In this document: positions 10,840-14,604 of the stretch, in pieces
How positions within the stretch are numbered: the stretch's first letter is position 1
How the letters are laid out: every line of letters starts with the position of its first letter
From: a virus
IMG/VR virus record: IMGVR_UViG_3300011008_000259
Strand: one strand, 5' to 3'
Length of the DNA: 23,887 nt
Made by a program: the position numbers and the translations under genes
The notes under the pieces: generated by a model
Databases searched by the model: none
Seen by the model: only the letters and a program-made list of their open reading frames with translations
What the model was told of the DNA's origin: nothing

Positions 10840-13800
10840 TTGGATAATAAAATAAAAGCTTCAGTATCAGATATAGATAGAATATTATCTACCCTAACAG
10901 ATAAAGAAAAAGAATTTACTTTAGGTGATCAAACTTTTGAAAAACCTGTAATATTTAAGCATATTATATTTGATAATGATAAACCTATAGGGTTTATTAG
11001 ATTATTAACTAAACGTGTATTTGATGGAGATGTATTTGTACAATTTGCTATTGATCCTAAGTATCGTGGTAAAGGATATGCTAAAGAGTTGATAAATGCA
11101 GCAAAGAAATATATTAAAACTAATAAAGATATTAAAAACTTATATTATAATGCTGATATAGATAATATAGTAAGTCAAAAATTTGCTGAAAAATCTGGTT
11201 ATAAATTATTAAACTCTGATGATAAAAAGAAAACGTATTTAATTGAATCAGCTGCTGATGATATTGATATATTAAATAAAATTATTAAATTCAATGAAAG
11301 AACTAATAAATTTAAATATGGTTTAGTATTTCCTGGTGATAAAAAAATTGATCATGAAAAACATAATGTTACTACACTCGAAGATTATAAAAAATACTGG
11401 AGATCAGCTACTCCAGAAGAATTTGTTGAGCATGACGGAGGAATCTGTTGGGAATATGTATCATATATAGCTAACTGGTTAAAAAATAATTATCCAATGA
11501 TTAAATATGAAACTTTCTATATTCAATTTGATAATAAGCAAGATTATCCTACACATTCGTTTTTGATATTTGAATTGGATGGAAAATATTATTTGATAGA
11601 ATCATCTATGAAAAGAGCTAGATATTTAGGTGTATTTGAATCTGATATCAAATACGATCTTATAGATAAAGTGATGTATGCAATGAGTCATTATAATAAA
11701 AATAATGAAAATAAAGACAACGGATTATTACAATATAAATATAATATCTATAAATATGACTGTTTAGATAAAAGAATGTTTGGGTTAGATTATTCAAAAT
11801 ATATAGAATTTATATATAATCATAGTACTAAAATAAATCATAAATATTCGGATACGTTTAATGTGCAAAAAGTCGATATTAATAATATACCTAATTATAA
11901 ATTTACAGAATCAGCTGCTGATGACGATACATATACCGCATTATATATGGCAAAAGAACTAGGCAATATATCAGAAGCTTCTATGAATAATATTATAGAT
12001 ATAGATTTTCCTGAGGAAGAAATTAATATTCTAAAGAAGCAAAATAAGATAATTACCACAAGAGTATCAGCAGAGTATAATAAGTATAATGTTGGTGATT
12101 TGGTAAGAACTCCATGGGGAGATATATTTAAAGTATTAAATATTAAGAAATTTAGAGATATAGAAAACCATCCGTATTTAGATGAACTTACTGAAGATCA
12201 AATTAATCTTCTTAGCAAATATAAGAAAATGGATCTTGTTACTATGTATAAACAGAAAGATGTTAAAGAATTTAATGTATCTGAAGCTAAATATTATACA
12301 TGGATACTTAATCCAGAGTTTAATATAACTATTCCTAAGAATACTTATAGAAGAATAATAGCTTTGTTAGAGAGAACTCCTAAGGATAGAATATTTATTA
12401 GTACTGATTGGCATATATATAAAGAAAAATATTCTAGTGGAATAGGATTATATAATGAGTGCTTAAGATGGTGTAAAGAAAATCTTAATTATGATGATGT
12501 ATTTATATATCTTGGAGATGTTGGTTATAAAAAATTAACTTATAAAGAACAGGCAGAAATTCAACAATTAATGAAATCTATAAAATGCTATAAGATTTTA
12601 ATTGTTGGTAATCATGATCTCATGATGGGAGACGATACATTTATTTATAAATGTGGGTTTGATTATGTTATGGAAGAATTGGAATGGAATAACTTGATAT
12701 TTACTCATATACCTATAAAACCTCCGGCGGGTTACTTGAATATTCATGGTCATATACACGATGAAGAAGGTTATACTAATGACGAAGGTAAATATAATTT
12801 AAATGCTTATCCATCATTTTATGATAATAAGCCAGTATCTTTAGAATACTTATTGAATAATAAAGATAAATTGGTTAAAACTCATTTTAAAAATCATATT
12901 GATAATACTGGACCTAGTCAAACTACTGAAGAAATTCAAGCCGAATTACGTTCTATAAAAAGAGAACAGGCTGATATTTCCGAAAATTCATTAAATGATT
13001 TTATCGACTATTTAAAAACAAAAGATAAAAAGATATTTGAATTAAAGAACTGGATATATAAGAATATAAAATACGATAAAAATGATAGTACTTGGAAATT
13101 AAAATCTCCTGAAGAAGTATTTAAAACTAAATTAGGTAATTGTCACGATCAGGCCCATTTTATAAAATATTGCTTAAGTAAATTAGGTTATAATCCAGTA
13201 TTATATTTTATGATGTCATATAATAAAAATACCAACCAAGGTGGAAAGACGCATACTTTATGTACATGGTCTACACAGGATAATAAAGGATATATTAATT
13301 ATTTAGATAATGAATCTGGTATTCTAGGAGATTATGAATGGGAACCAGAACCATCGATTAATAATTTGAAAAACAAATGTTTAAATACAAGAATGTTAAC
13401 AAATAAAATATATCCTGATTATATATGGACTAAAATTTCTTCTTCTATAAATTATGGGGTAAATTTACAAGAATATGTTGATAGATGTTGTTCTAATATT
13501 AGTTCTGTAAATGAAGCTTGTAAAGATGTAGCTATAGCTAGACAATTTGTTACTGATGTAGATAAGTTAGCTAAAAAATATGATGCTAATTATTTCATAG
13601 TAACAGATGGAGCATCTGGTGTTAGAAACAATGGTAATCCCGCAGTCCGTAATGCTAGATTAGCTCAAATAGAATGGGAGAAAAATAATAATGGAGATCC
13701 TGATGAAGATTGGTCTGATAAAGTAAAGAATGGTAAATATAATGAAGGTTGGAGAGCAGATCTACCCGATTCATCATTTGGAATACCTGAAGATAGAAAA

Positions 13801-14604
13801 TTCCCATTAGATACCGAAGGTAGAGTAAAATCAGCTATACATTTATTTGGACATGCTCCTGAAGGGAAGAAGAAATCATTAGCTAGACGAATCAGTAGAG
13901 CTGCTAATAGATATGGTATAAAAATACCAGAAACCACACAAGTATATAAATATCTACACGAATCTAATAATACTAATGAATCTGGTATTGCTGCTATGGC
14001 AAGTGTTAATCCTATAGTGGGTGGCGGAGGTAATTATATATTAAGAGTACAAGAACCAGAAGATTTATTTAGTAAATTAGTATATTCTAGAGATCCGTCA
14101 TCCGGTAAAGGTCTTATAGTTAATGAGAATAATAAATTAGAGATTATTGATGTTGATGAAAGTTATATAATTGATAAGTTTAAATTTATTGGTAATGAAG
14201 CTTATATTGATAAATTAATAAATCTATATAATGCTAATGAATCTGTAGAAAGCTTATATAATATATTAACTAATAAACATCAATACACAGAGAATCAAAT
14301 AGATTTTGATTCTAATTTTAAATTAATTAATGAAGATCTTGATACCGAAAGACATAATACCGAATTGGCTACATTTATAGAAGAATCTAATATAATATCG
14401 GGTAAGATTCCTTATAGCATAAATTCATTATTAGAAATGCCTATAGAGTTAAATGAATTACATATAGAATTTCCTGATATAATAATGAAAGAAGATTCTA
14501 ATGGGTATTATTTATATGATAATTTATCGCATAAACGTACTAGATCAGTATCTGAAGTAAATTTAATAAATAAAAATATGTTTAACAGCTTATTAACAGA
14601 ATAA
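10840..14604 (+). CDS. Giant multidomain protein: GNAT acetyltransferase, transglutaminase/papain-fold cysteine-peptidase-like domain, metallophosphoesterase, second transglutaminase-like domain, long C-terminal region
   Basis: 1254 aa. TTG start with TAGGAGG 9 nt upstream; there is no in-frame ATG nearby. GNAT motif A is IDPKYRGKGYAKELI. The first Cys-His pair is GGICWEY...THSFLIFELDGKYYLIES. The MPP module (TDWH, YLGDVGYK, VGNHD, HGHIH) is about 45% identical to the one in the 2653-5385 protein. The second Cys-His-Asp set is LGNCHDQAHF...KTHTLCTWS...YLDNES. Confidence 0.6.
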   Translation: MDNKIKASVSDIDRILSTLTDKEKEFTLGDQTFEKPVIFKHIIFDNDKPIGFIRLLTKRVFDGDVFVQFAIDPKYRGKGYAKELINAAKKYIKTNKDIKNLYYNADIDNIVSQKFAEKSGYKLLNSDDKKKTYLIESAADDIDILNKIIKFNERTNKFKYGLVFPGDKKIDHEKHNVTTLEDYKKYWRSATPEEFVEHDGGICWEYVSYIANWLKNNYPMIKYETFYIQFDNKQDYPTHSFLIFELDGKYYLIESSMKRARYLGVFESDIKYDLIDKVMYAMSHYNKNNENKDNGLLQYKYNIYKYDCLDKRMFGLDYSKYIEFIYNHSTKINHKYSDTFNVQKVDINNIPNYKFTESAADDDTYTALYMAKELGNISEASMNNIIDIDFPEEEINILKKQNKIITTRVSAEYNKYNVGDLVRTPWGDIFKVLNIKKFRDIENHPYLDELTEDQINLLSKYKKMDLVTMYKQKDVKEFNVSEAKYYTWILNPEFNITIPKNTYRRIIALLERTPKDRIFISTDWHIYKEKYSSGIGLYNECLRWCKENLNYDDVFIYLGDVGYKKLTYKEQAEIQQLMKSIKCYKILIVGNHDLMMGDDTFIYKCGFDYVMEELEWNNLIFTHIPIKPPAGYLNIHGHIHDEEGYTNDEGKYNLNAYPSFYDNKPVSLEYLLNNKDKLVKTHFKNHIDNTGPSQTTEEIQAELRSIKREQADISENSLNDFIDYLKTKDKKIFELKNWIYKNIKYDKNDSTWKLKSPEEVFKTKLGNCHDQAHFIKYCLSKLGYNPVLYFMMSYNKNTNQGGKTHTLCTWSTQDNKGYINYLDNESGILGDYEWEPEPSINNLKNKCLNTRMLTNKIYPDYIWTKISSSINYGVNLQEYVDRCCSNISSVNEACKDVAIARQFVTDVDKLAKKYDANYFIVTDGASGVRNNGNPAVRNARLAQIEWEKNNNGDPDEDWSDKVKNGKYNEGWRADLPDSSFGIPEDRKFPLDTEGRVKSAIHLFGHAPEGKKKSLARRISRAANRYGIKIPETTQVYKYLHESNNTNESGIAAMASVNPIVGGGGNYILRVQEPEDLFSKLVYSRDPSSGKGLIVNENNKLEIIDVDESYIIDKFKFIGNEAYIDKLINLYNANESVESLYNILTNKHQYTENQIDFDSNFKLINEDLDTERHNTELATFIEESNIISGKIPYSINSLLEMPIELNELHIEFPDIIMKEDSNGYYLYDNLSHKRTRSVSEVNLINKNMFNSLLTE

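Follow-up and report, generated by a model that had tools for sequence, protein, structure and literature searches.

Why would one phage gene carry the same 17 nucleotides twice, each time where one protein domain gives way to the next, and could the six amino acids they encode mark places where the protein is cut? The question is raised by the longest open reading frame (ORF) of IMG/VR virus record IMGVR_UViG_3300011008_000259, a stretch of 23,887 nucleotides (nt) that is referred to below as the window. The window has a composition of 24-33% G+C and nearly all of its ORFs lie on the + strand. According to the ORF listing, the ORF in question (10840-14604, +) has a TTG start and encodes 1254 amino acids (aa). 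The reading favoured here, with a probability a little short of even, is that of a polyvalent effector array whose Glu-Ser joints a phage protease cuts in trans, as judged from sequence and by analogy with known phages. Independent cassettes (a GNAT acetyltransferase, two transglutaminase-like modules, a metallophosphoesterase (MPP) and three small modules) would be threaded ahead of a 207-aa C-terminal domain. The joints between them, of the form [I/L/V]-x-Glu↓Ser (the arrow marks the candidate bond), would be cleaved by a Glu-specific phage protease acting in trans, most likely the head-maturation protease, and the array would be cut into separate effectors. The C-terminal domain or short N-terminal leaders would form the constant targeting or anchor part, and the joints would also be the points at which related phages swap cassettes.

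Eight modules were delimited in the 1254-aa protein with Pfam, PHROGs, all-against-all BLAST with relatives and two AlphaFold models. Together with the start site and the two copies of the 17-mer they are, from upstream to downstream:

10825-10842, +: ribosome-binding site TAGGAGG (10825-10831), 8-nt spacer and TTG (10840-10842), read from the sequence; public gene call P0001 has the same start
10840-14604, +: 1254-aa polyvalent multi-cassette gene
10840-11247, +: cassette 1, GNAT acetyltransferase, residues 1-136, ending in ...KKTYLIE (Acetyltransf_1 1.2e-11, phrog_1249)
11245-11261, +: junction 1, 17-mer GAATCAGCTGCTGATGA encoding E136-S-A-A-D-D, predicted scissile bond E136↓S137
11248-11910, +: cassette 2 (TG1), transglutaminase-like cysteine-protease module, residues 137-357, candidate triad C203/H239/E254
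11908-11924, +: junction 2, second exact 17-mer encoding E357-S-A-A-D-D, predicted scissile bond E357↓S358
11992-12285, +: cassette 3, unassigned module, about residues 385-482 (...IITTRVSAEYNKY...), from BLAST high-scoring segment pairs (HSPs) starting at 382-390 and ending at 471-474
12340-12948, +: cassette 4, calcineurin-like MPP, about residues 501-703 (phrog_547 2.1e-13)
12967-13515, +: cassette 5 (TG2), about residues 710-892, candidate triad C768/H805/D823, ending in ...SSVNE892↓A
13516-13746, +: cassette 6, small module, residues 893-969 (ACKDVAIARQF...DPDEDW...), ending in ...KYNE969↓G
13747-13980, +: cassette 7, DUF6582, residues 970-1041, followed by the linker SNNTNE (HSP ends at 1041-1044)
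13981-14601, +: conserved C-terminal family-defining domain, residues 1048-1254 (207 aa)

TTG is the sole start that keeps the GNAT module intact, because the earliest in-frame ATG lies at about residue 219, within the second module. The GNAT Pfam match starts at residue 39, which corresponds to profile position 34. P0001, called on a 23,949-bp ENA contig, has the same length as the 1254-aa protein and 100% identity to it. In the orthologous gene on contig L001, GGAGG is followed by ATG at the equivalent place. An earlier note on this DNA had described the TTG with TAGGAGG 9 nt upstream; start and ribosome-binding site hold, and direct reading gives a spacer of 8 nt. A promoter-like 18-mer upstream of the gene is common to L001 but shows no significant repetition in the window.

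Acetyltransf_1 covers residues 39-121 of the first cassette with 45.4 bits (cut-off 20.7), and the acetyl-CoA motif A (R/Q-x-x-G-x-G/A) is present as YRGKGYA within the motif starting at residue 68. TG1, for which a small alignment was built from family members, matches DUF553 with 26.1 bits (cut-off 20.5); used alone in a word-indexed homolog search it gave no match. TG2 matches both Transglut_core (9.8e-10, 39.1 bits, cut-off 23) and DUF553 (4.5e-12, 46.1 bits, cut-off 20.5), and jackhmmer identifies TG1 and TG2 as homologous. A Cys-His-Asp/Glu triad on a papain-like core is found in the transglutaminase-like modules, and these embedded Cys-His modules are credible proteases. Cassette 3 has no Pfam match and is common to giant SNF2-helicase proteins (homologs P0003, P0005-P0008, P0014 and P0026); a candidate joint, E482↓A, follows it. 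Pfam Metallophos was not reported for the 1254-aa protein in the Pfam scan. The MPP motifs occur in order (DWH 523-525, GD 559-560, GNHD 590-593, H623 and GHIH 637-640), and the module is 40% identical to the MPP of another ORF of the window (2653-5385). Cassette 6 shares 57% identity with JDFnp4_74, a standalone 86-aa protein of Fusobacterium phage JD-Fnp4. DUF6582 is recognised by Pfam on the isolated segment (27.9 bits, cut-off 27.3) and is followed by the candidate joints YLHE1041↓S and TNE1047↓S. The C-terminal domain belongs to no Pfam or PHROG family. Pfam, PHROG and motif matches bear out the string of GNAT, Cys-His, MPP and second Cys-His domains that had been proposed from the sequence. 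Most of the approximately 550 aa then left unassigned are now divided into modules, with cassette 3 still lacking an assignment. If the joints are used as proposed, the predicted mature N-termini are S137, S358, A893, G970 and S1048.

The Glu-Ser joint at cassette boundaries

The 17-mer occurs exactly at 11245-11261 and 11908-11924, and none was expected by chance (0 matches in 100 shuffles). The duplication had been noticed before, with both copies drawn one base too long (to 11262 and 11925); the 18th base differs between them (T versus C). Both copies encode E-S-A-A-D-D, at E136 and E357. For a fixed E-S-A-A-D-D, chance alone would produce identical codons about 4-7% of the time under the codon usage of the window, so the nucleotide identity is only mildly informative. 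The placement at domain boundaries, also part of the earlier proposal, is confirmed by the break points of BLAST homology: the HSPs of the GNAT module stop at 134-143 and those of TG1 extend from 145 to 336-351, which puts one copy on each border of TG1. The core of the 17-mer, ATCAGC-T-GCTGAT (11246-11258 and 11909-11921), is a 6+6 inverted repeat with a PvuII site (CAGCTG). A search of IMG/VR for the exact 17-mer was not informative, with nine single matches in unrelated contigs, at about chance level.

The protein was also placed in its family. The last 215 residues were scanned by HMMER against 1.84 billion representative proteins. The scan yielded 69 proteins, which are 198-2523 aa long and with few exceptions match up to their C-terminus; a profile search added further members. 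Using jackhmmer, the C-terminal domain was found in 113 of the 121 proteins collected. The modules counted among these 121 are DUF6582 (78), MPP (70), GNAT (21) and transglutaminase-like (9); HAD phosphatases, P-loop kinases and SNF2 helicases are among the other cargo. The conserved polar residues of the domain are D1085, S1088, K1090 and E1096. Among 50,697 deposited phage genomes the domain has no match, and no cultured phage carries it. Searches of the same genomes with the whole window and its proteins gave no close relative, and matches were confined to single modules, namely the MPP (Vibrio and Ralstonia phages) and the 86-aa protein (Fusobacterium phages). By its sequence, the C-terminal domain is a previously undescribed conserved domain that stays constant behind varying cassettes. 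The family proteins are located on contigs of 130-313 kb, and the window represents part of the genome, roughly 250 kb in size, of an uncultured jumbo phage. This phage may be distantly related to the AR9/PBS1 group.

To compare the joints across the family, a boundary was defined as a position where the HSPs of at least three partners start or end and few cross, giving 92 non-redundant boundaries in 79 proteins. The dipeptide ES is present in 37 of the 92 boundary windows against 12.7-13.6 expected (z = 7.0-7.3) and ranks first of all 400 dipeptides. The extended form [LIVMFYN].ES is found at 30 boundaries, with 7.6 expected (z = 8.8). The control dipeptides EN, KS, EK and SE are flat, and DS is only weakly raised. 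A logo of 40 ES sites has I, L, V or Y at P3 in 28 of 40, a variable P2, Glu at P1 and Ser at P1'. The T4 head protease follows the rule (L/I)-x-E, with which the hydrophobic P3 and the Glu at P1 of this logo agree. The consensus [I/L/V]-x-E↓S looks like a protease cutting site.

The joint ahead of the C-terminal domain follows a similar pattern. In nearly all fused members, whatever the preceding module, a Glu stands 5-8 residues ahead of NP[VI]xG, usually in the form [LIVM]-x-E-[WYFS]-[AS]-M-A. Standalone C-terminal domains start either at the following Met (MAxxNP) or with a leader of 13-14 aa that ends in [VL]-x-E↓WAM, and on such a standalone domain a linker role of the leader is impossible. 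The hexapeptide itself is more restricted. Had it been absent from homologs, the earlier note's proposal would have lost its ground; it is in fact conserved in part. Junction 1 of P0002, the closest ortholog (about 80% identical, on the syntenic contig L001), reads GAATCAGCTGTTGATGA and encodes ESAVDD, and the motif is missing at junction 2, where a different cassette is found. Distant homologs lack ESAADD and retain x-x-E-S, and relatives carry lineage variants such as NESAIDE, NESVEES, TESGIDD and ITESADD. ESAADD is a lineage-specific form of the family joint.

P0002 also illustrates how cassettes are exchanged. It starts with MDDHKKSYLIE↓SAVDD, i.e. an 11-residue leader and junction 1, and the GNAT cassette is absent. 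In place of TG1 it has a different GNAT cassette, which joins the common DTYT... without ESAADD, and in place of TG2 a P-loop kinase cassette between ...ISE[ND] and ...E↓ACKDV. It is therefore devoid of any transglutaminase-like module, yet retains junction 1 and the other Glu joints, and the breakpoints of the swaps coincide with Glu joints. Because both are swapped out in P0002, TG1 and TG2 are regarded as exchangeable cargo. The 17-nt duplication is probably the footprint of a TG1 cassette that was inserted together with its joint.

Candidate proteases and alternative explanations

If the joints are cut, the enzyme has to be named. The prohead proteases of T4, phiKZ, 201phi2-1 and SPN3US cut after Glu in a three-residue motif, and that of SPN3US prefers Ser at P1'; the T4 internal proteins carry N-terminal targeting leaders of 10-20 residues, and the SPN3US paralogs gp53 and gp54 have identical leaders with the motif (PMC5694885; PMC10052503). 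The same features, Glu at P1 of a short motif placed at leaders or between domains, are found here (z = 7-9; MDDHKKSYLIE↓S and MGTSLIRKIAE↓S).

Several points weigh against cleavage by such a protease. No prohead protease is encoded in the window. A phmmer search of all ORFs of about 30 related loci with the Peptidase_S77-like protein of JD-Fnp4 found only JD-Fnp4 itself, and a scan of IMG/VR with the same protease returned only JD-Fnp4-like contigs. Likewise, no protease was present in about 35 kb read along the 259-kb relative IMGVR_UViG_3300029705_000004; virion structural genes were found there, together with genes for a RusA-like resolvase and for a 1212-aa protein that bears a lysin. In the window, the genes next to the polyvalent gene (HTH protein, Bro/KilAC antirepressor, PC4-like protein) are of a regulatory rather than a structural type. 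Within the protein, the border between MPP and TG2 has no clear E-S joint. The boundaries are not fully independent samples, some joints having been inherited, and part of the ES signal could be structural, Ser being a residue that often caps the N-terminus of helices. A loose N-terminal leader pattern is not enriched (45 observed, 41 expected), so that leaders are cited as individual cases only. Finally, what was computed is the architecture, the family, the joint enrichment and the swaps, and from these we infer cleavage, the identity of the protease and virion packaging.

The structural point leads to an explanation without any cleavage, in which the joints are linkers where one fold ends and a Ser caps the first helix of the next, the protein is one large multifunctional enzyme and ESAADD was duplicated along with an inserted cassette. 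In the AlphaFold models a helix indeed begins within 1-2 residues of the Ser (TG1 H2-19; C-terminal domain H3-9). S-A-A-D is moreover a canonical S-x-x-D/E capping box, and the 17 identical nt are what a recent duplication or insertion would leave, with the reservation on identical codons given above. There is also precedent for delivery of unprocessed proteins, namely the N4 virion RNA polymerase and plasmid ArdC and TraC1 (PMC5512222). A linker, however, does not call for an enrichment that is specific to Glu before Ser (KS being flat and DS weakly raised), nor for the strong hydrophobic preference at P3. It is also needless where x-x-E leaders are kept on standalone domains and on an ortholog without the upstream cassette. 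The requirement for Glu and the preference at P3 speak for a recognised site, and the linker explanation is considered unlikely.

The protein might instead process itself. As proposed in the earlier note, its own Cys-His modules (C203/H239 and C768/H805) would cut the ESAADD joints, in cis or in trans, in which case TG1 or TG2 would cut a KKTYLIESAADDID peptide. The signal that this proposal started from, a processing-site-like junction, extends across the family (ES 37 versus 12.7), but the cutting agent does not follow. Only 9 of the 121 relatives carry a transglutaminase-like module, and proteins without one are equally enriched in the joint (ES at 33 of their 79 boundaries, where 11.7 are expected; z = 6.7). 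P0002 keeps its joints without such a module, and both modules behave as cargo. Because carriers are few and the enrichment is unchanged without them, self-processing is not the general mechanism, and it is quite improbable as an explanation of the 1254-aa protein; the modules may rather be effectors aimed at host proteins. Even less is to be said for the C-terminal domain as the processing enzyme, i.e. a divergent papain or NlpC/P60-like fold cutting the upstream joints. It has no conserved Cys or His, which rules it out as a thiol protease, and this explanation as a whole is highly improbable.

Cutting by a phage protease in trans therefore remains the preferred reading at the tentative level given at the outset. 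A wider proposal builds on it, namely that a distantly AR9/phiKZ-like clade carries an effector polyprotein with a new C-terminal handle and 1 to >10 cassettes, in which the [ILV]-x-E↓S joint would be both head-maturation cut site and exchange seam. In this full form the proposal is rather doubtful.

Genomic neighbourhood and possible further substrates

The polyvalent gene belongs to a conserved block with genes for 327-aa, 291-aa, PC4-like and 360-aa proteins, which recurs in six related loci besides the window. The 360-aa protein of this block shows distant similarity to g220 of Bacillus phage AR9 (251 kb), a gene that adjoins AR9 virion protein genes. In the 259-kb relative, genes annotated by PHROG as 'virion structural protein' lie within about 10 kb after the conserved block. 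The same phage has three consecutive genes starting with MIF[NS]...E↓[SG] (L037 5543-7860 and 2551-4353, -) beside virion structural genes. Roughly ten members of the polyvalent family start with M[IL]F...E↓[ST], a start also seen in L030. The MIF-type leader may be a shared targeting leader; its statistics are weak (6 of 247 Shine-Dalgarno-preceded starts, about 2 expected). Two other genes of the window with candidate joints are:

22379-23707, +: 442-aa ORF with the short leader MLDLKYIE↓SKL
2653-5385, +: second multi-cassette protein, 910 aa, with an N-terminal region, MPP, DUF362 (1e-38) and a P-loop kinase (Pfam, PHROG)

The homolog of the 442-aa ORF in the 259-kb phage starts with MIFSSYINE↓G, is one of the three MIF genes and adjoins virion structural genes. 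The 910-aa protein lacks the C-terminal family domain and has an ...IDE↓SF joint ahead of its kinase cassette, which is the same cassette that replaces TG2 in P0002. The 'IDES' start of the kinase cassette also occurs in P0002 and in a 900-aa protein of L001, and P0010 has the related '[IV]KES'. JDFnp4_74, the standalone homolog of cassette 6, starts with MGTSLIRKIAE↓SQKEV. Its gene lies about 5 kb from a protease gene with the annotation 'prohead core serine protease', whose product falls just below the Peptidase_S77 cut-off (25.4 bits, cut-off 27).

Further observations concern other genes of the window. The 393-aa ORF at 21181-22362 (+) and its homolog (L037 4325-5443, -) have a common ...LLE↓SFSD[FY][FY] segment. 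YMNE↓S and LLE↓S are additionally found within the first third of the window copy. These proteins may be further substrates of the same putative protease. Residues 290-403 of the HTH protein (506 aa, 203-1723, +) share 39% identity with a small hypothetical protein encoded by JD-Fnp4 (L029 5219-5536). This second module-level link to JD-Fnp4 is compatible with a Fusobacterium-like low-GC host and is no proof of one.

The 821-aa ORF at 7539-10004 (+) matches domains of the eukaryote-type major vault protein (MVP_shoulder 1.1e-23, Vault_3 and a weak SPFH match). This ORF and the 148-aa ORF that follows it are absent from the otherwise syntenic L001. In other viral contigs, vault-like homologs (47% identical) adjoin gyrase, ligase and phosphoesterase genes, not structural genes. 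The ORF contains a near-copy of the 17-mer:

9894-9910, +: third near-copy (GAATCTGCTGCTGATGT, 2 mismatches), in frame as ESAADV, residues 786-791 of the 821-aa ORF

The near-copy lacks the inverted-repeat symmetry of the 17-mer. At the position of ESAADV the 47% identical homolog in L004 has AKGES↓IPD. As a third site it was kept as a mere possibility, since this homolog has IPD for AAD and the region is Ala-rich, and it may be a coincidence in an Ala-rich conserved helix.

Between the vault-like ORF and the polyvalent gene, two ORFs on opposite strands overlap, at 10268-10654 (-) and 10095-10541 (+). The reverse ORF is probably real, since its N-terminal part (ITMVQPIDYNTYCKFRQ...) is conserved in L001 as a gene of 65-68 aa. 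The 3' half of the other, the 148-aa ORF, may be over-called, since phrog_2018 is matched by no more than about 78 N-terminal residues. At 10757-10778, between the small conserved reverse-strand gene and the polyvalent gene, CCCTAACCTT-AT-AAGGTTAGGG forms a perfect inverted repeat of 10 bp with T-rich and A-rich runs on its flanks. At the same place L001 has a different sequence that also forms a hairpin (ATATCGCTAGCT...AGCTAGCGATAT), which suggests a conserved terminator, probably a bidirectional one.

Comparison with known systems

The nearest class is that of the polyvalent proteins (Iyer et al. 2017, J Bacteriol, PMC5512222). Both are phage-encoded single polypeptides with several unrelated enzymatic effector domains, and the 1254-aa protein falls within the range of 2-15 unrelated, mostly enzymatic domains by which the class is recognised. 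Both also shuffle domains rapidly between close relatives, in the present family with lengths of 198-2523 aa and two swaps at about 80% identity. Processing into units by a peptidase has been proposed for that class too. For delivery into the host along with the DNA, a further mark of the class, the one pointer here is the nearness of virion structural genes in a relative. Pfam searches with the complete protein and with single segments, at E up to 0.1-1, did not find the hallmark domains MuF, zincin MPTase and ArdC-N; SNF2 helicase domains do occur in some relatives. What distinguishes the present family from the class is that the constant part is a new C-terminal domain and that the cargo includes transglutaminase-like modules. 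The terms 'transglutaminase' and 'papain-like' gave no hits in a term search of the PMC5512222 text, and its searched passages mention no [ILV]-x-E-S joint at cassette borders. If the joints are not cut, the present data still catalogue a new polyvalent-protein family with the seams at which its cassettes are swapped.

TG1 and TG2 themselves match the transglutaminase-like cysteine proteases (CPR-C4, vasohibin and LapG; DUF553, Transglut_core) in fold and in the Cys-His-acid triad. They differ from CPR-C4, vasohibin and LapG in being cassettes inside a phage multi-domain protein.

With regard to processing, the substrates of the T4 (internal proteins and Alt, cut by gp21), phiKZ (gp175) and SPN3US (gp245) proteases are the closest parallel. 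They are cut after Glu, their leaders end in the motif, paralogs have identical leaders and the cargo consists of diverse anti-host enzymes. Such substrates are usually trimmed at one end, whereas here the candidate sites lie between up to eight cassettes. If these are cut, trimming by T4/phiKZ-type maturation proteases would extend to true multi-unit polyproteins. A simple sequence rule would then predict the mature effector set of uncultured jumbo phages, with acetyltransferases, phosphoesterases, vasohibin-like proteases, kinases, HAD phosphatases and SNF2 helicases. The C-terminal domain may be a packaging or anchor handle, and joint and handle together could serve to bring foreign proteins into phages of this kind, a use already made of the T4 targeting sequence.

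A further comparison is with the polyproteins of RNA viruses cut by 3C or NIa-type proteases (Gln/Glu↓Ser/Gly). Both string units together with a short reiterated site that has Glu at P1 and a small residue at P1'. No chymotrypsin-like protease domain was found by Pfam in the whole 1254-aa protein or its segments. The RNA viruses use the arrangement for an essential replication set, whereas here it belongs to a DNA phage and the cassettes are accessory and exchangeable. If the preferred reading is true, the array would be the DNA-phage counterpart of RNA-virus polyprotein processing, delivering a customisable set of anti-host enzymes.

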